Shown here: piece after piece, positions 5,149-61,079 of the stretch
Layout of the letters: each line of letters starts with the position of its first letter
Numbering within the stretch: position 1 is the first letter of the stretch
Source: Candidatus Berkelbacteria bacterium
Lineage (GTDB): Bacteria; Patescibacteriota; UBA1384; CAILIB01
Assembly (NCBI GenBank): GCA_043751595.1
Contig: JAYUZR010000020.1
Span: 336-64,335 of the forward strand
Direction of reading: 5' to 3'
Length of the DNA stretch: 64,000 bases
The notes under the pieces: model-generated
The model's input: only the letters and a program-made list of their open reading frames with translations
Database searches by the model: none
What the model was told of the DNA's origin: nothing
Made by a program: the position numbers and the translations under genes

Positions 5149-5502
5149 ATGAACCTAGATAGCGCCATCTTCTACAGTCACGATATTACCAAGGTAATCC
5201 CTTTTTACATTGACACTGTCGGCCTTACAGTCGAGTACAAAACCGAGCGTTTTGTATCGTTTAATTTTCCAAATGGGGCAAAGCTTGGGATCAAGAATCA
5301 AACCAAAGAACGAGAAGTCCCTGGTTTTCAAACCGTTTTTATCTCTGTTGAAGATGTGGCCACGCTTTATGCAAAACACAAAGAACAGAATCTTGATTTT
5401 TATGGCGAGCTAACCGAATTTGATTGGGGAACTGAATACAGTATTTTAGATCCTGATAAGAATAAAATTCTTTTTGTTCAGAAGCCCTCGTCTACTCCAT
5501 GA
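5149..5502 (+). CDS. Glyoxalase/bleomycin-resistance (VOC) family protein
   Basis: 117 aa with the typical VOC beta-alpha-beta-beta-beta pattern (ITKVIPFYIDTVGL...GTEYSILDPDKNKILF). Confidence 0.6.
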   Translation: MNLDSAIFYSHDITKVIPFYIDTVGLTVEYKTERFVSFNFPNGAKLGIKNQTKEREVPGFQTVFISVEDVATLYAKHKEQNLDFYGELTEFDWGTEYSILDPDKNKILFVQKPSSTP

Positions 5503-21488: not shown

Positions 21489-22493
21489 TTGGCAATTACT
21501 TGTCGCTTGCGTAGAGTAAGCTCCACTATGTCATTCACTCCCCGCCCCGAAGTCTACGATACGTATTGGTACTTTGCGGCGGAACGGCAAAATACTTTTA
21601 TAAAGCGCCTAAGTGGGGCGAAGGCACCGTACACGCAAGATCCGATTCTGGCGCAGTATAAGTTCTGCAATACGTACCGCGCCCTCGACCGCGAGACACA
21701 GTTTTTAATTCGGGAGGTTATCTATTCAAGTAGCTATTCCCCTCAAGATACGCTGTTTCGGATTATGCTCTTTCGCCTTTTTAACAAACATCAAACTTGG
21801 GTGGCGTTAGAGAAGCTACTGGGCGAAATTAGCCTGACAACCTTTTCTCCGGGAGCCTATAGCGCATTACTCGAAAAGATCCGCGAAGAAGGGCCCATCT
21901 ACGGAAATGCCTTTATTCTTTGCGCTAATAAGGCGTTTGGATTTGATCAAAAACACAATAATCACCTTGCCCTGCTTGAATATACTTTTCTACGCAGTGA
22001 GATGGGTAGAAAGCTAGAAGAGGCAAAAAGCCTCCGTGAGCTCTTTATGGTTTTGCGTGAACTGCCGCTGATTGGCAACTTTATGGCGTATCAAATCGCC
22101 ATAGACATGAATTACTCCGAAGTATTCAACTTTAGCGAGAATGATTTTACGATTGCCGGTCCCGGGGCTGAGCGCGGCATCGCTAAATGCTTTAGCTCTT
22201 ACGAAAAGTCCGATCGCGAGGCAATTATTATGTACATGGTCGAAAACCAAGAAAAAGAGTTCCAGCGGCTAGGGCTCAACTTTGCGCGAATTGGTAATCG
22301 CCCACTGCAAGCCATAGATTGTCAGGGACTCTTTTGTGAAACCGATAAATACTCGAGAGTACGATTTCCAGAATTAGCCAGTAATCGCAAGCAAATAAAA
22401 GCCAGCTTCACCCCAAGCCCAGCACCGATTGAATACTTCTTCCCACCTAAATGGCAGATAGAAGCAATTTGCACCGGGCAACAACTTCTTTAA
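21489..22493 (+). CDS. Conserved hypothetical protein (YWYFAAERQNTF ... QYKFCNTYRALDRETQ motifs); family not recognised
   Basis: 334-aa ORF, likely start at 21528 (MSFTPRPE). Its 3' end overlaps the convergent kinase gene by 47 nt. Confidence 0.55.
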   Translation: MAITCRLRRVSSTMSFTPRPEVYDTYWYFAAERQNTFIKRLSGAKAPYTQDPILAQYKFCNTYRALDRETQFLIREVIYSSSYSPQDTLFRIMLFRLFNKHQTWVALEKLLGEISLTTFSPGAYSALLEKIREEGPIYGNAFILCANKAFGFDQKHNNHLALLEYTFLRSEMGRKLEEAKSLRELFMVLRELPLIGNFMAYQIAIDMNYSEVFNFSENDFTIAGPGAERGIAKCFSSYEKSDREAIIMYMVENQEKEFQRLGLNFARIGNRPLQAIDCQGLFCETDKYSRVRFPELASNRKQIKASFTPSPAPIEYFFPPKWQIEAICTGQQLL

Positions 22494-54283: not shown

Positions 54284-54997
54284 ATGAAATCACTCCATCC
54301 GCTCCAACTAGAAATCCTTCAGAAACTTCTTTTCTCCACTTCCCTTCGCTTTACCGACCTTAGACCAAACGAAGAAGTAGAGAATAATCAACTAGATTTT
54401 CATCTTCATAAGCTAATAGAGCTGAGCTACGTAGAAAAACGTGGCCTTGGATACGGCTTAACCTCACTTGGAAAGGAGTACGCCGGTAGAATCGATACAT
54501 CCAACCGACTTATCACTCGGCAAGGAAAGATTGGTGTCATTATTGGCTGTATTCGGGAGCGAAATGGCGAGAATGAGTTTCTTTTTTACACCCGCCTTAA
54601 GCAACCATTTTTTGAATGCCAGGGATTTCCTACCGGTAAGATCCAATTTGGCGAGAGCATTGTAGAAACGGCTGAACGAGAGTTATTTGAGGAAACCGGA
54701 TTAACCGGCAAGGCATCTGTTATTCAGCTTACCCATTATCGAGTACGAGCCATCGGTACCTCTGAGCTACTCGAGGATAAGTACTTATTCCTCTGCAAAG
54801 TGTCCGAGCCCGAAGGCGAGCTAATAGAGCGATCGGAAGAGGGCTTGTATTACTGGGTGAAGGAATCAGAAGTAGAAACAGTCATCACTAATCCCTTTGA
54901 TCCTATTGATGAATATCCGCGAGGAATTGAGCTACTTAAGAAAGATAATCCGATGGTTGAGATCATTGAGATTGAGCATGAGGGGAAGAAGTTTTAG
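54284..54997 (+). CDS. Winged-helix (MarR-like) plus NUDIX hydrolase fusion
   Basis: N-terminal wHTH, then Nudix box GKIQFGESIVETAERELFEETG. The stop codon abuts the 16-bp repeat. Confidence 0.7.
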   Translation: MKSLHPLQLEILQKLLFSTSLRFTDLRPNEEVENNQLDFHLHKLIELSYVEKRGLGYGLTSLGKEYAGRIDTSNRLITRQGKIGVIIGCIRERNGENEFLFYTRLKQPFFECQGFPTGKIQFGESIVETAERELFEETGLTGKASVIQLTHYRVRAIGTSELLEDKYLFLCKVSEPEGELIERSEEGLYYWVKESEVETVITNPFDPIDEYPRGIELLKKDNPMVEIIEIEHEGKKF

Positions 54998-55012
54998 GTC
55001 GGGGAAAGAGGA
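54997..55012. repeat. 16-bp direct repeat of the tRNA-Pro 3' end (GGTCGGGGAAAGAGGA); second copy at 55131-55146 inside the tRNA
   Basis: Exact 16-mer seen twice, 118 bp apart, in the same orientation. Confidence 0.7.
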
Positions 55013-55095
55013 AGTCGCGCTTCGCGCTCAACATTTCTCCATACTTCCTTAGTAGAAATGGTGAACCTTGGTTTCAAGCCTCGCTTCGCGACATA

Positions 55096-55127
55096 CCAAA
55101 AGAACCGCCGTTAGGCGGTTCTTTTGG
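55096..55127. terminator. Bidirectional terminator with perfect 14-bp stem
   Basis: CCAAAAGAACCGCC-GTTA-GGCGGTTCTTTTGG, immediately 3' of tRNA-Pro. Confidence 0.7.
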
Positions 55128-55129
55128 TA

Positions 55130-55206
55130 TGGTCGGGGAAAGAGGATTTGAACCTCCGATCTCCGGACCCCCAGCCCGGCGCACTAGGCCACTATGCTAT
55201 TCCCCG
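55130..55206 (-). tRNA. tRNA-Pro, anticodon GGG
   Basis: Reverse complement folds: acceptor CGGGGAA/TTCCCCG, D-stem GCAT/GTGC, anticodon stem CCGGG/TCCGG with loop CTGGGGG (G37), T-arm GGAGG-TTCAAAT-CCTCT, CCA encoded. Confidence 0.8.
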
Positions 55207-55536
55207 AGAGAGTGAGGCAGAAAAGTAAGCTAGCTTACTTTTTGCCGAGCGAATGAGGGGAGATATCGCGAAGCGATATTACCCGAATCTTAACTGGAGC
55301 ACTTACAAGGGGGATTCCGACATAAAGAAAGATGACCCCCTTTCCTCGTATGCGGCCTGGATCTAATTCCAGGTGGGTAACCTCACGCATAGCCCACGGG
55401 CTATGCAAATATTGGAATTCCCGTAGCGTTTGATGGTGACCACATACGAAGCGGTAGGTCGCTGGCATCCTACCTCCATCTGCCAGATATATCAAGCTTT
55501 CGCACACTGCTAAAAACTTGGTATACTCTCACGTAT

Positions 55537-57804
55537 ATGAGTCAGTCCCTCGTGCGGCTTTGCCGCATTGTGGCCCCAGAACGCCTATCAGATCGCTTCC
55601 TTACCTCGGGTGTTCTCACCCAGCAAGAGGGCGATTTTGATGCTCAAAAAAGCGTCATCCTCTGCTACGTTCTCGAGATCACACGTCCCTGGTTCCCCTC
55701 CTCCACTGTGTTTGCAGCGGTGCGTGATGCACTTGCTGAAACCCTGCCATCGCTCACGCCTGGCGAAACCCTCATTGATCAGATCGAAGAACTTCTTCGC
55801 CTGGTTAACCGTCGCCTGGCCGATATCTCTGATCAAGGCGAAACCGACTGGATCGGCAACCTAAACGGTATGATTGTCGCGATTGGCGGCAACGAACTTC
55901 ACTTCTCTCAAGCCGGCAGTATTCCGGCTTATCTCTTGCAAAACAACAGAATCCGTCAGATTACCGACGATCAGCCGCAGCAACAAGATCCTAATCCCCT
56001 CCGCACCTTTGCTAACCTTTCTTCTGGCCAACTCCAAGAAGATGACCGGATCCTCTTTGGTACCCACGAACTCTACCGCGAGCTTTCGCTCGATGCTCTT
56101 CGCCGGATCGTCGGCAAAAGCTCTCCGTATCAGGCGAGCCAGAGCATTCTTCGAGAGCTTAAGCGAGCTAAAAATCCAGGCGTACTAAGTACCATTGTTT
56201 GGTTTGGCGCAACACCAGGAGCTACGGAACCTGATTCTGTTTCCCTAGAAGAAGCCCTGCGCACTCCAATGCAAAAGGTAGTGCACACCGTTACGCCAAT
56301 TGCTCACAAAACGATTCAGCACGGAAAAAGAGCAACTGGAGCCCTAAAAAAGGCAGCTGAAGTTGGCGCCCAGTATGTACAGGAGAAGGCAATTCCTGCC
56401 ACTGGCCGCATCATTAAAGCTGGCGAGAATCAGGCAGAACAGGTCTTCCAAAAGATTGATACTAAGTTTCATACTACCTCCCCTGCCCTTACCGATATTC
56501 CGGTAGAGGACCCTCTGGCCGATGGCACGATTATTATCCGCCTCTATCCTCAGGTAAAAGTAAGGACCAAAACATCTCCGCTAGTTGCGGCTCAGCGCGC
56601 TTTCTTTATTAGCCTCCACAAGCTGGCGCAAGCCTACCGTTGGGTGCAAGCAACGCAACTACGCAGAAGAGTTGGCCTGGCTGGTATTATTGTAGTGTGC
56701 GCCGGCGTTGGCACGCTCGCCATTTATGCCCGCAAGCAGCCGGTTGCTCTTACCCCTACTCAGAGCCAAAATACTACCGTTATTACTCGCCTCCGCGAAA
56801 TTGAGGCTGCGGTAAAGACCGAGACCAATCAAACCACCTTGGCCCAGCTTACCACCGAGGCAAATACCCAGTACGATGCTCTGCAAAGCCCCGGCGAAGG
56901 CCAAAAGCGCGAGGCAGACCGCCTCTGGATAAGTATTACCGACCAACTGGATACCATTACCAAAACGGTTCGCTTTGTTGATTCCACCGAAAGTTACACC
57001 CTACCCGCGGCTGGAAAACAGGTAATTGCCAGCCTGCCCTTTATGTACGCCACCCCAAGCGGCAACCTTACTAGCCTGCTTCGTACCGGCAAGGGGAATG
57101 CTTCCGCCACCCAACGCACGCTTCCTATTACCGGCGACGAAGTACCAGTTGCCCTTACCCGAAGTCTTGAGGCCGATACCGCGGGTTACATTTTTACCAA
57201 CCAGCGCAGCATGTATCGCATCACTCAAGAAGATGCCGAGACTACCCTTCGTAAAGTGGAGCTTGATGGCGGCGAAAAGTTCTCCAGCGGCGATATGATC
57301 GGAACCTACCACGGCAACCTCTATATTGTAGATAGTGTAAACGGGCTCCTCTGGCGCTATGCCACCACCGGTACCGCCTACGGCAAGGGCTCCAGCGTGA
57401 TTGATAAAACCAAGTACGATCTTAAGGGAGCTACTTCCTTTGCAATTGATGGCGCGATCTACCTGCTTAAAAAGGATGGGACGGTCCAGAAGTTTGTCAC
57501 CGGAAAACAGGATACTAATTTTGCCCTTACCGGCATTCCGGAAGCTTCGCCAAAGGTGGTGCAGCCGCTCCAGATTCTTACAAATGAAAATACCGATAAT
57601 CTCTATTTGCTGGATGGCGGCATTACCAGTAGCGCTCGCCCGACTGCCCGTATTTTAGAGTTTAGTAAGAGCGGAAGTTTTATTCGCCAGTTTGCCTTCC
57701 CTGCAAGTGTAACGGCGGTTAAATCGGTTGATATTAGCGAGCAAGAGCGCATGATCTGGGCGTTGAGTGGCGATAAGGTGACGGCATTTAGCCTTCCACA
57801 ATAG
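55537..57804 (+). CDS. Membrane protein with N-terminal PP2C/SpoIIE-like (probably inactive) domain, a TM helix, and a C-terminal beta-propeller-like domain
   Basis: IVAIGGNELHFSQAGSIPAYLLQNNRIRQITDD and DDRILFGTHEL align with PP2C motifs, but GDSR reads GGNE and SDGL reads GTHE. TM VGLAGIIVVCAGVGTLAIYA. Repeats with the pattern NLY(I/L)(V/L)D...G. Confidence 0.6.
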   Translation: MSQSLVRLCRIVAPERLSDRFLTSGVLTQQEGDFDAQKSVILCYVLEITRPWFPSSTVFAAVRDALAETLPSLTPGETLIDQIEELLRLVNRRLADISDQGETDWIGNLNGMIVAIGGNELHFSQAGSIPAYLLQNNRIRQITDDQPQQQDPNPLRTFANLSSGQLQEDDRILFGTHELYRELSLDALRRIVGKSSPYQASQSILRELKRAKNPGVLSTIVWFGATPGATEPDSVSLEEALRTPMQKVVHTVTPIAHKTIQHGKRATGALKKAAEVGAQYVQEKAIPATGRIIKAGENQAEQVFQKIDTKFHTTSPALTDIPVEDPLADGTIIIRLYPQVKVRTKTSPLVAAQRAFFISLHKLAQAYRWVQATQLRRRVGLAGIIVVCAGVGTLAIYARKQPVALTPTQSQNTTVITRLREIEAAVKTETNQTTLAQLTTEANTQYDALQSPGEGQKREADRLWISITDQLDTITKTVRFVDSTESYTLPAAGKQVIASLPFMYATPSGNLTSLLRTGKGNASATQRTLPITGDEVPVALTRSLEADTAGYIFTNQRSMYRITQEDAETTLRKVELDGGEKFSSGDMIGTYHGNLYIVDSVNGLLWRYATTGTAYGKGSSVIDKTKYDLKGATSFAIDGAIYLLKKDGTVQKFVTGKQDTNFALTGIPEASPKVVQPLQILTNENTDNLYLLDGGITSSARPTARILEFSKSGSFIRQFAFPASVTAVKSVDISEQERMIWALSGDKVTAFSLPQ

Positions 57805-57869: not shown

Positions 57870-59165
57870 TTAGAACGGCGGAGGCGTGGGACTGGGCGCC
57901 GGCGTTGCCAGCGGGTCCCGCGCCTTCACTTCCACCGTGAGGGTGGCGGAAATGAGGTCGCGATTTTCCGTTCCCTCGGCCATCAGGAGCTTGCCGAAGA
58001 CAAGATTATCCAGGCGGCGTAGTGCATCCTGGTGAAAATCGGTCGGTAGCTCGAAGTCGATCGACTCCGTTTTACCGTCCATTCCGTCAAACAAGTAGGT
58101 CAGCTTGGCTTTTATGTCCCACGACGCTGGCAAAGCCGAGCCGAGCCGATTTGCGACCGGAATCAGCAACCCGTAATAGGTCCCGGCGCCCTGAGCGCCC
58201 TGCCCGTTGTCGCGACAAACGAAGTGCGTGATCGTCTCCTGGGGTTTCCCAGGCATCGTGATCTTTACTTCGAGCGTCCCGACTGCCGGCGCCCCGGCTT
58301 TGATCAGAGACCCGAACTGGCCGTCGAAGGCCAGCGTGTGCGTGGGGGCACCCATCGCACGAGTGACGACGCTCCCATCGAGCAGGCGGAAGTCTGATGT
58401 ACCAATCGCAACGGGCAAGCGACGCGGACCGAGGTCGTCGATCGCGTGCCCAGTGGCAATCCAGCCGCCTTTCTGAGGCGAGTAATCAGTGAGGGTTGCC
58501 GAGCCGTAGAGCTCGACTTCCGGACCATACACCGCGAAGAACACGTACTTGCGCCCGGGGGCGAATTCGGTGTCTCTCACGGCACGGCTGGAGCTCACTT
58601 GTCCGCTAATGGGGGTAATCCCCGTCTTGGAGAAGTGAGTGAGATTGATAGACGAAGGCGCTCCTTTCAGCACCCAGGGAATGCGAGGCGGTGTTGTACC
58701 GCCACGACCACGACCGGAGTAGCTGAGCTGCAGCATCTGACTAAAGCTGCGAGCATAGACGCTTTTCGCGTCGTACCCGGACCAAACAGCCGCAACCAAC
58801 TTGCCGTCTGCGGTAACTACCGGACTACCGGAGTCACCTGGTCCAAGCTTCTGATCGGCCTGAGGCAGAATAGCAATCTGATCGTTGCCATTGTCCGCCC
58901 CCGCAGAAATCAATTGAACCTCACGCTTATAGACGCCGGTTCCGGCATCATTCGTGAGAACATAAAGCTTGGTACCTGACGCAAGCGCACGGGTGTCATC
59001 CCACCCAAGCATCCCCGTGTAAGGAAAGATACCGGAGATGAGCTCACCCTTAGGCGTGTCGTAGGTTGCGACGTTACCATCACTCCCTCCACCACAGCCC
59101 GAAATAAGCACTCCGCAAGCAAAAAACATGCAGAGCATCCAATAACGCAACATGTTAACCATCAT
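57870..59165 (-). CDS. GC-rich lipoprotein with SpoIVB/S55-like serine-peptidase motif
   Basis: SD AAGGA 6 nt upstream. Lipobox LISGC. Motif GPGDSGSPVVTADGKLVAAVWSG resembles SpoIVB GMSGSPIIQNGKVIGAV. No His lies N-terminal to it. Sampled GC is about 63-67%, against about 42-58% elsewhere. Confidence 0.6.
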   Translation of the reverse strand: MMVNMLRYWMLCMFFACGVLISGCGGGSDGNVATYDTPKGELISGIFPYTGMLGWDDTRALASGTKLYVLTNDAGTGVYKREVQLISAGADNGNDQIAILPQADQKLGPGDSGSPVVTADGKLVAAVWSGYDAKSVYARSFSQMLQLSYSGRGRGGTTPPRIPWVLKGAPSSINLTHFSKTGITPISGQVSSSRAVRDTEFAPGRKYVFFAVYGPEVELYGSATLTDYSPQKGGWIATGHAIDDLGPRRLPVAIGTSDFRLLDGSVVTRAMGAPTHTLAFDGQFGSLIKAGAPAVGTLEVKITMPGKPQETITHFVCRDNGQGAQGAGTYYGLLIPVANRLGSALPASWDIKAKLTYLFDGMDGKTESIDFELPTDFHQDALRRLDNLVFGKLLMAEGTENRDLISATLTVEVKARDPLATPAPSPTPPPF

Positions 59166-59315
59166 GTTTCCTTTCCAACCGAAGCACTTTAAATGTGCTA
59201 GAGAGCATTTACTTTAGATTTAATCAAATGTCAATCTGTCAGAGGCCTTCTTCTTGGGGCTTTAACCCGCCGCAGAAGAGCGCATTTCATTATTGAAATG
59301 CTCTCTTCGAGGCTC

Positions 59316-61079
59316 TTACATACGTGAGGGAACCGGCATTCCTAACACCCCATTCGCCAGCTGCACTAATACGCGTTCGGTAAGTTCAGTTACCGCAATC
59401 CAACGCACCTGCTCATCGCCCGCTGCCTGCATAATGCGGCATTGCTCGTAAAAGCGGTTCGCTGCCTGCGCTACACTAAAGAGGTGATCAGCAACGGTAT
59501 GTGGCGTAAGCGTTACGGCCACTTCAGCCAAAACCTTTGGAGTGGCAAGCAATACAAGGAGCAAGGCGCGCTCGCTTTCGGCCAGATTACTACCAACCCA
59601 AGCGCCAGCCACACCAGCTTTACGCAACACCGCCCGCAAGCGAACAATGGTATACAGAATAGAAGGACCAGTCTTGCCCTCAAAACTGGCAAAACGTGCG
59701 GGATCAAACTTATAATCCGACTTTTTATCGCTAGAGAGATCCCCAAACTTAAGCGCTGCCACCGCTACTTTTTCAGCAATTTCTTGCTGTTCTTCTTCGG
59801 AGTAATCCTTAGCTACACCGGCACGCTGCATAGTTTCTTTAGCGGCGGCAAGCAGGGTATCGATAAGCTCCTCGAGGCGCATTACGCCGCCATCGCGAGA
59901 TTTAAACGGCTTGCCATCTTCTCCGTTAAGCGTGCCAAACCCATGGAAAGTAAGCACTTGATCTTCAGGCACATAGCCGGCCTGGCGGCCAGCATCAAAC
60001 ACTTGCTCAAAGTGCAGTCCCTGACGCTTATCTACCACATAGTGACTCTCATCGAATCCATTTTTGGTTCGATCTACGATGGTGGCGATATCGGTGGTGG
60101 CGTACAGGTAGGCGCCGTCCGATTTAAGCAAAATAAGTGGAGGTGAATCTTCTCCTACCGGAATAATCGTGGCGCCGTTGTCTTGCTTAGCAATTCTTCT
60201 ATCCAGTAAGTCCTTAACGATCCCCGGAATCATATCATTGTAATAGCTTTCGCCGTGCCAATAATCAAAGATAATACCCAATCGCTCATACTGGCGCTTG
60301 GCATCCGCCAAAGAAATCTTTGCAAACTGCCCCCACAGAGCCAAATACCCCCTTCTCCCCTGCTGAAGTTCTAGGGTAGCCTTAAGGGCCGCGGCTTTAG
60401 CTTCGGGATCGGTCTTAGCTAGACCCGATTCAAAAGGATAAATCCGGCCGAGATCTTCGAGCGTTACCGGAGATTCGGTTGGATATTCACCAGCAAACAA
60501 TTCATCGAAGTATGGAAGATCTGGTTGTTCGCGCTGAATACCGATAATTACCATTCCCATTTGAGTGCCCCAATCTCCCTGATGAACATCACCCAGTACT
60601 TCGTGACCGAGCAGCTGCATGAGCCGAATTAGCGAGTTTCCAATAACAGCCGAGCGCATATGCCCTACGTGTAACGGCTTTGCTACGTTTGGCCCACCAT
60701 AATCTACGGCGATTTTCTTCTTTTTCTGAGCCAGTGGAGCGAGCAGTCTATCACTCTCGGCAAGTTGCTCAGCAGCCCTCATTACAACGCTCTCGGAAAG
60801 GCGAAGATTCACAAATCCAGGTCCCGCACTACTTACTTCAGAAAAATCAGTGTCTTTCTGTAAAAACTCAACCACCTGCACAGCAATCTCTTGGGGAGAC
60901 TTTTGCAATTGCTTAGCTAGGGCCAAGGCACCATTCCATTGATAATCGGCAAGATCGGGGCGACCAGAAACCACTACCTCCACTCCGTAATCTTGTATCA
61001 AAAAACCAAGCGCACTGAGCGCATCCGTAATTTTGGCTCGCAAGACCTCAGAAATAACTTCCGACGAGAGGGTGATCAT
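59316..61079 (-). CDS. argS: Arginine--tRNA ligase
   Basis: 587 aa with class I HIGH-type PLHVGHMRS and the ArgS anticodon-binding C-terminus. Confidence 0.9.
   Translation of the reverse strand: MITLSSEVISEVLRAKITDALSALGFLIQDYGVEVVVSGRPDLADYQWNGALALAKQLQKSPQEIAVQVVEFLQKDTDFSEVSSAGPGFVNLRLSESVVMRAAEQLAESDRLLAPLAQKKKKIAVDYGGPNVAKPLHVGHMRSAVIGNSLIRLMQLLGHEVLGDVHQGDWGTQMGMVIIGIQREQPDLPYFDELFAGEYPTESPVTLEDLGRIYPFESGLAKTDPEAKAAALKATLELQQGRRGYLALWGQFAKISLADAKRQYERLGIIFDYWHGESYYNDMIPGIVKDLLDRRIAKQDNGATIIPVGEDSPPLILLKSDGAYLYATTDIATIVDRTKNGFDESHYVVDKRQGLHFEQVFDAGRQAGYVPEDQVLTFHGFGTLNGEDGKPFKSRDGGVMRLEELIDTLLAAAKETMQRAGVAKDYSEEEQQEIAEKVAVAALKFGDLSSDKKSDYKFDPARFASFEGKTGPSILYTIVRLRAVLRKAGVAGAWVGSNLAESERALLLVLLATPKVLAEVAVTLTPHTVADHLFSVAQAANRFYEQCRIMQAAGDEQVRWIAVTELTERVLVQLANGVLGMPVPSRM

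Follow-up and report, generated by a model that had tools for sequence, protein, structure and literature searches.

This locus raises the question of how a tRNA gene came to have a second copy of its own 3′ end a short distance away, and whether inserted DNA was responsible. The gene lies in a 64,000-nucleotide stretch of contig JAYUZR010000020.1 from a Candidatus Berkelbacteria bacterium (hereafter "the window", meaning the whole stretch that was analyzed), an organism that its protein matches place in the Patescibacteria, or candidate phyla radiation (CPR). It encodes tRNA-Pro with the anticodon GGG, and the displaced copy of its 3′ end adjoins a convergent gene for a protein with NUDIX and winged-helix domains. 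We consider that the two copies are probably a pair of left and right attachment sites (attL and attR) left by site-specific integration, and that the integrated element decayed in place to the 118 bp that now lie between them.

The repeated 16-mer, GGTCGGGGAAAGAGGA, occurs only twice in the window with up to two mismatches allowed, and both copies are on the same strand (Table 1). Approximately 0.01 matches were expected from shuffled sequences, and none of 100 shuffles contained at least two. A previous, sequence-only reading of this DNA had reported the exact, same-orientation duplication and its 118-bp spacer, both of which are confirmed here, and had held that a 16-mer frequent in the genome would speak against an insertion; in the 64-kb window it is not frequent. 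ARAGORN and Rfam agree on the tRNA gene, with its body at 55133-55206 and an encoded CCA at 55130-55132. In the tRNA sense the repeat reads TCCTCTTTCCCCGACC and comprises the last T-loop base (T60), the 3′ strand of the T-stem (CCTCT), the 3′ strand of the acceptor stem (TTCCCCG), A73, C74 and C75. Read against the cloverleaf, the block thus starts at a canonical sublocation, position 60, and ends at C75. The copies are direct repeats; 118 bp separate the distal one from the gene's 3′ side, downstream in the tRNA sense, and it is followed by T in place of the final A of the gene's CCA.

No tRNA body accompanies the distal copy, as the interval 54900-55600 contains a single tRNA (Rfam, E ≤ 5). 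A pseudo-tRNA at that position was considered and rejected; it gave no Rfam match at the same threshold, and other sub-threshold matches were driven by the terminator hairpin described below. A 22-nt query from the tRNA 3′ end, with up to seven mismatches, found no third, degenerate copy in the window, which could have pointed to a larger island. The stop codon of the NUDIX gene had been said to overlap the distal repeat, and it does so by one base: only the G of TAG falls in the repeat, as its first base. The C-terminus of the protein (...KF) is also found in most of the best 30 homologues listed, and therefore the protein has been neither shortened nor lengthened by the repeat. A distal copy that has no tRNA body and abuts a complete NUDIX open reading frame (ORF) has the look of a displaced target fragment. 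Since the homologues of the NUDIX gene (51-59% identity) had neither a tRNA nor the 16-mer beside them in the loci examined, synteny based on this gene was uninformative.

Table 1. Features at the tRNA-Pro locus of the window and related features in the compared loci (L numbers).
Feature	Position	Strand	Basis or remark
NUDIX/winged-helix gene, 237 aa, convergent with the tRNA	54284..54997	+	ORF; Pfam PF00293 and PF24038
Distal repeat copy, putative displaced tRNA 3′ fragment, attR-like	54997..55012	-	exact 16/16 match
Internal 15-nt direct repeat AAGTCGCGCTTCGCG, family D5	55012..55026; second copy 55076-55090	.	87% identity of the second copy
118-bp segment between the copies, proposed remnant of inserted DNA	55013..55130	.	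no ORF of its own; strongly structured
Second hairpin, imperfect (inverted repeat I8)	55028..55064	.	11-nt arms, 10/11 paired, 15-nt loop; in both minimum-free-energy folds
Perfect 18-bp stem, 4-nt loop GTTA (inverted repeat I1)	55092-55109 / 55114-55131 (55092..55131)	.	
tRNA-Pro, anticodon GGG, intact, proposed attachment-site gene	55130..55206	-	ARAGORN; Rfam RF00005, 60.4 bits
Proximal repeat copy, tRNA positions 60-75, attL-like	55131..55146	-	exact match; position read from sequence
Large serine recombinase family genes	L065 1-795; L072 6258-7544; L074 1801-2796; L077 1313-2968		convergent with tRNA (Pro, Glu, Phe)
Structured RNA-like element in relatives	L064 170-305; L065 895-1030; L068 2076-2206; L069 5788-5924; L074 3016-3150; L067 1-133		

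The segment between the copies folds much more stably than shuffled controls, with z-scores of -7.0 on the minus strand and -5.7 on the plus strand. The stem beside the tRNA, previously given as 14 bp, is in fact perfect over 18 bp; it has a G+C-rich core (GAACCGCC/GGCGGTTC) flanked by an A-tract and a T-tract, and its final two bases coincide with the CA of the encoded CCA, which the hairpin thus abuts. A terminator scan detected the inner stem and the T-run on the plus strand, and folds of both strands supported the hairpin. Because the core lies between an A-tract and a T-tract, the hairpin is predicted to act as an intrinsic terminator in both directions, that is, for the tRNA and for the convergent NUDIX transcript. 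Each copy of the internal 15-nt repeat contains CGCTTCGCG, which forms a mini-hairpin of the GCGAAGC type on the tRNA strand; this motif occurs four times in the window, compared with 0.62 expected, and three of the four lie within 260 bp of the tRNA. As to the origin of the 118 bp, there was no match in the phage collection or in IMG/VR.

The mini-hairpin motifs near the tRNA (CGCTTCGCG/CGCGAAGCG) are found at 55018-55026, 55082-55090 and 55267-55275. The last of these, upstream of the tRNA, belongs to a hairpin that is also present, with a different sequence, in relatives (for example, GGGGAAATTCGCAAAGCGAATTGCCCC in L064), and in L074 a similar hairpin unit, about 62 nt long, stands in three tandem copies.

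The 641-nt segment carrying both copies is identical in ENA ERZ27313706, Logan SRR14689458 and ENA ERZ28573541, which come from different samples and pipelines. Therefore, the arrangement is not a misassembly or other artefact, and it looks fixed. These three assemblies represent the same organism at 100% identity; they are not independent relatives and are silent on the ancestral state. The sequence-only reading had proposed that relatives without polymorphism would refute an insertion. No polymorphism was indeed seen, yet the assemblies are fully identical, so that this is not decisive. A scan of GTDB genomes with the tRNA 3′ end, in a collection that lacks the window's species, returned only unrelated phyla and one CPR contig (L043), and a scan of IMG/VR with the 22-mer gave no match. 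The nearest relatives share 59% (NUDIX) and 43% (a 755-aa protein encoded on the other side of the tRNA) protein identity with the window.

How, then, is the same tRNA used in these relatives? In most of them the gene for the 755-aa protein, a clade-specific family, is followed by those for arginyl- and tyrosyl-tRNA synthetase (ArgRS-TyrRS), and wherever it could be checked a tRNA-Pro (GGG or CGG) stands divergently upstream of the 755-aa gene. Synteny is kept upstream of the tRNA, and the DNA 3′ of its CCA is different in every checkable relative. No cargo was common to the window's downstream genes and the islands of the relatives.

One species, designated here species B, comprises the loci L050, L060 and L064. 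The tRNA and the 46 nt upstream of it are identical, and the far flank is 98% identical; the flanks enclose unrelated DNA, 0.9 kb of it in L060 and 7.7 kb in L050, with the divergence beginning right after CCA. In L060, a perfect 17-bp hairpin starts at CCA and is followed by about 60 nt and then by an exact copy of the tRNA 3′ region, CAAATCCTCTTTCCCC, which represents 16 nt from the T-loop to the acceptor and lies 101 nt from the tRNA. In L050, there are two exact 15-nt copies, 2.1 and 7.7 kb downstream. The 69 nt that end in the L060 copy match those ending in the first L050 copy at 87% identity, and therefore the short version in L060 and the 2.1-kb version in L050 share an element end. 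L050 has cargo-like genes, encoding a NUDIX protein, a YbaK-type editing domain, a SIR2-like protein, a methyltransferase and an EamA transporter; no integrase was found in it. The stored sequence of L064 (a 165-kb contig) ends at the last base of the tRNA and overlaps L050 by 127 nt, which looks like an assembly-graph branch at a polymorphic junction. As L050 and L060 part right after CCA, the sequence adjoining the tRNA in species B travels with the variable DNA. In a second group, L051 and L056 have the upstream side in common with L062 and diverge from it at the tRNA end. The earlier proposal that the duplicated 3′ end marks a site-specific insertion is thus upheld: the repeat is beyond chance, it has the right orientation and comprises the right block, and in relatives the end of this tRNA is a junction for variable DNA and for elements that bear a recombinase.

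In the second group, which is another CPR group, L051 also has a long palindrome directly after tRNA-Pro (5289-5365 in tRNA-sense coordinates), and its two arms of about 77 nt recur in L056 some 1.7 kb apart (128-204 and 1877-1953, likewise in tRNA sense). The pair is suggestive of an element bounded by inverted repeats and of a miniature form derived from it, at one and the same tRNA.

In the explanation that we favor, the incoming DNA would have carried its own copy of tRNA positions ~60-75, followed by the terminator, and a site-specific recombinase would have put this DNA into the 3′ end of tRNA-Pro(GGG). Such a crossover would leave the tRNA intact, with its 5′ part from the host and its 3′ end and hairpin from the insert, while the host's own 3′ end would be displaced by 134 bp and come to lie, as it now does, against the stop codon of the NUDIX gene, presumably the original 3′ neighbor of the tRNA. 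Internal deletion in a streamlined genome may then have reduced the insert to 118 bp, and with no recombinase left the structure would now be immobile, a fixed scar. The empty site predicted by this model would read ...AAGTTTTAGGTCGGGGAAAGAGGATTTGAACC..., with the NUDIX gene abutting the tRNA, and the circle expected if the segment were excised would have the junction ...TTTTGGTATGGTCGGGGAAAGAGGAAGTCGCG.... We infer this direction of events, a once-larger insert and the original position of the NUDIX gene from the arrangement as it stands. The sequence-only reading had suggested either an excised island or a mini-insertion. The former is mechanistically wrong, given that precise excision leaves one copy; two copies are present, and therefore the insert is still there, either internally deleted or always tiny.

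Which recombinase might have acted? The closest relatives, L065/L066 and L074-76, have a large serine recombinase gene convergent with this tRNA-Pro, and its final codons are antisense to the tRNA 3′ end. The ORF in L065/L066 corresponds to the C-terminal half of such an enzyme, with a Zn_ribbon_recom domain above the Pfam cut-off and the end of a Recombinase domain; its last seven codons are antisense to the tRNA 3′ end, and its stop codon lies in the T-loop. Homologues of this fragment comprise 58 CPR proteins, the full-length ones with Resolvase, Recombinase and Zn-ribbon domains, and many members of the family are truncated at the N-terminus and encoded on long contigs. In 23 of the 58, the tail reads, in one fixed frame, like the antisense of a tRNA 3′ end, namely G, four residues, and then xRT or a stop. 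The tRNA is not always tRNA-Pro: the recombinase gene overlaps tRNA-Glu by 22 nt in L072 and tRNA-Phe in L077, an IMG/VR contig with phage ERF and replisome-organiser genes across the tRNA, while in L074-76 a truncated 331-aa copy overlaps tRNA-Pro beside the 755-aa homologue and ArgRS-TyrRS. A 12/13 match in L072 was considered as a direct repeat and rejected, being on the wrong side and inside an ORF.

Several observations weigh against the integration that we favor. No recombinase, integrase or remnant of either was found in the 118 bp or among the 32 ORFs of the window put through Pfam, and the best tblastn match of the window to the serine recombinase family reached only E = 0.01. The window also lacks a serine recombinase ORF convergent with the tRNA, such as L065, L072, L074 and L077 have. 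At the recombinase loci of the relatives, the available sequence contains no long direct repeat of the tRNA end, and because of this the family may not be the agent at the window's site. Neither an empty nor an occupied variant of the window's own site was found among the relatives, which are only 43-59% identical; of the checks proposed by the sequence-only reading, the one for an occupied site gave only the alternative inserts at the homologous tRNA in species B, and neither an integrase nor an attP-bearing element was found for the window's organism. In addition, a 118-bp remnant requires an extra deletion step that is not documented. Finally, the window's hairpin resembles the one beside the near-identical tRNA of L043 (15/17 bases; shuffle p ~0.004), where no repeat of the tRNA 3′ end was detectable, so that the hairpin could be native rather than imported. 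On the other hand, L050 and L060, which belong to one species, differ from the first base after CCA, and this argues for an imported hairpin. The window's 118 bp showed no homology to the L060 and L050 modules beyond the hairpin.

We also considered the possibility that the 16 bases were duplicated locally without a site-specific recombinase, through template switching or illegitimate recombination provoked by the palindrome, or through break repair. A perfect 18-bp palindrome stands right at the tRNA end, no recombinase is present, and the related hairpin of L043 occurs without a repeat, all of which this possibility would accommodate. However, the copied block is the canonical attachment block of a tRNA gene, running in direct orientation from the edge of the T-loop to the 3′ end, and similar blocks occur three times in species B, where they bound alternative DNA on the kilobase scale. 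Moreover, slippage would duplicate more than this block, and nothing else in the 118 bp is duplicated. Therefore, a local duplication seems unlikely.

A further possibility is that the 118 bp never belonged to anything larger, and that they represent a complete, non-autonomous mini-cassette of ~100-135 bp, consisting of a tRNA 3′ end, a terminator hairpin and a structured tail, which a recombinase encoded elsewhere would insert into tRNA-Pro and which could be mobilised in cis or in trans. L060 has the same architecture at nearly the same size (101 nt), and two random deletion remnants of like size would be a coincidence; recombinases acting at tRNA 3′ ends also exist in the clade. Nevertheless, the two modules share no homology except in the hairpin, and the right end of the L060 module is also found in the 2.1-kb island of L050, which favors a deletion derivative. 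No second copy of the 118-bp segment was found in the window, the other loci or IMG/VR, and a 134-bp circle would be a poor recombination substrate. We thus regard a complete mini-cassette as rather improbable, and the more specific proposal that the 118-bp unit and its look-alike in L060 are discrete cassettes, repeatedly installed at tRNA-Pro by the clade's large serine recombinases, as more doubtful still.

The distal copy might instead have a function in the 3′ untranslated region of the NUDIX transcript, as an antisense, tRNA-sensing or primer-binding-site-like element. It would be transcribed, lying between the stop codon and the terminator, and it is perfectly complementary to tRNA positions 60-75. 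However, those bases are already paired in the mature tRNA, the pairing leaves out the terminal A, in contrast to a primer-binding site, and neither tRNA nor 16-mer accompanied the NUDIX homologues. Such a role is very unlikely.

Still less probable is that a transposase-type enzyme, as in casposons, duplicated its target site. The casposon of Aciduliprofundum boonei has targeted the 3′ end of a tRNA-Pro gene, with a duplication of 15 bp (14-16 bp) that arises from staggered cuts and overlaps the tRNA by 5 bp, and the element has terminal inverted repeats and encodes Cas1 and PolB (PMC5137440). The target gene is therefore the same, and the direct repeats are of similar length (16 bp in the window). 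In contrast to the casposon duplication, the repeat in the window lies wholly inside the tRNA, no terminal inverted repeats join the ends of 55013-55130, the 118 bp contain no ORF, and the scanned ORFs yielded neither Cas1 nor PolB. A chance match or an artefact of assembly can practically be dismissed in view of the expectation from shuffles and the 641 nt that are identical in three assemblies.

The surroundings of the tRNA showed some further features. Between tRNA-Pro and the 755-aa gene (55335-55470 in the window), there is a conserved, structured RNA-like element of about 115-135 nt that is present in all seven relatives. On the minus strand, which is that of the tRNA, 19 of 40 predicted pairs are kept through two-sided changes, with three G-U pairs unchanged throughout; the plus strand keeps 14 of 29 pairs in this way. 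The element gave no Rfam match at E ≤ 5, and may be an undescribed small RNA. In L069, where a peptidase gene separates the element from the tRNA, the element stays beside the 755-aa gene. About 10 nt upstream of the tRNA 5′ end, at 55217-55246, is a perfect palindrome of 11+11 nt (AAAAGTAAGCT/AGCTTACTTTT), and relatives have a different palindrome at the equivalent place; it probably serves as a terminator, shielding the tRNA from transcription that starts upstream.

Farther away, the 755-aa gene and ArgRS are separated by a 431-aa gene with a weak trypsin-like match (57870-59165). Much of this gene falls in the interval 58001-60000, which has the highest G+C content in the window (0.55, compared with ~0.48 elsewhere). 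The genes that flank it are adjacent in four relatives, and L065 has a small NUDIX gene there; the 431-aa gene looks like a separate insertion. In addition, an ORF at 21489-22493 gave a very strong match (E = 1e-100) to PF18723, the helical domain of 5-hydroxymethyl-dU DNA kinase. This kinase is a phage-type enzyme of thymidine hypermodification and is unexpected in a CPR chromosome segment.

What this locus adds is of two kinds. In itself a small and presumably inactive footprint, the scar is of value as a marker, and it identifies the tRNA-Pro beside the block of 755-aa, ArgRS and TyrRS genes as an insertion hot spot in a little-studied clade of Patescibacteria. It also suggests that inserted DNA in reduced genomes can shrink to ~100 bp and still supply a tRNA 3′ end and a terminator. 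Of more interest than the scar, probably, are the recombinases whose reading frames end within tRNA genes and the conserved structured RNA next to the tRNA.

Lastly, we compared the locus with known systems. The 16-mer was found at 30 loci in IMG/VR, of which about 10 would be expected by chance in a collection of such size; most are provirus junctions with tRNA-Pro of other bacteria, and none is from CPR. One of these proviruses, IMGVR_UViG_3300020591_000158 (L008, L032), has a full tRNA-Pro and, ~15 kb away, a 21-bp repeat that includes the identical 16-mer, with the gene for a tyrosine integrase at a distance of 19 bp from the distal copy. It is like the window in having the same 16-mer at the 3′ end of tRNA-Pro, although its 21-bp repeat starts one T-loop base earlier, and unlike it in the unrelated host (T-loop TTCGAAT), the ~15 kb between the copies and the tyrosine integrase.

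The islands collected by Islander are defined by a regenerated tRNA gene and a displaced 3′ fragment of it (PMC4383910). The window likewise has an intact tRNA at one boundary and, as a direct copy downstream, a fragment of the same gene that extends from the T-loop edge to the 3′ end, with the functional 3′ end kept. It differs in that only 118 bp are enclosed, with no integrase or cargo, and it would not pass the integrase filter of Islander nor, most likely, its length filter.

The islands at ssrA, the gene for tmRNA, in Dehalococcoides have a 20-bp direct repeat that starts in the T-loop and a CcrB-like serine recombinase beside the gene; some stand in tandem, and 15 islands have no integration genes and are possibly mobilisable in cis or fixed (PMC3146451). 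The likeness lies in a repeat of the tRNA or tmRNA gene's 3′ end with an insertion point in or near the T-loop. The recombinase at the gene-proximal junction, on the reverse strand, is as in our relatives L065, L072 and L074, and the tandem islands have a counterpart in L050. The differences are the tmRNA target, the kilobase size of the islands and the lack of a recombinase in the window itself.

The cis-mobilisable elements (CIMEs) derived from integrative and conjugative elements of Streptococcus are, as cited in PMC3146451 and PMC5704250, flanked by attL and attR, devoid of recombination and transfer functions, and derived by deletion; they are kilobase-sized, and their mobilisation by accretion was shown. 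The segment in the window is built in the same way, as it is flanked by attL- and attR-like copies and has no recombination or transfer genes, but its attachment sites are putative and it is only 118 bp long. Seen beside these systems, the scar is real but ordinary: its kind is well known, and it is unusual only in its small size and its host among the Patescibacteria.

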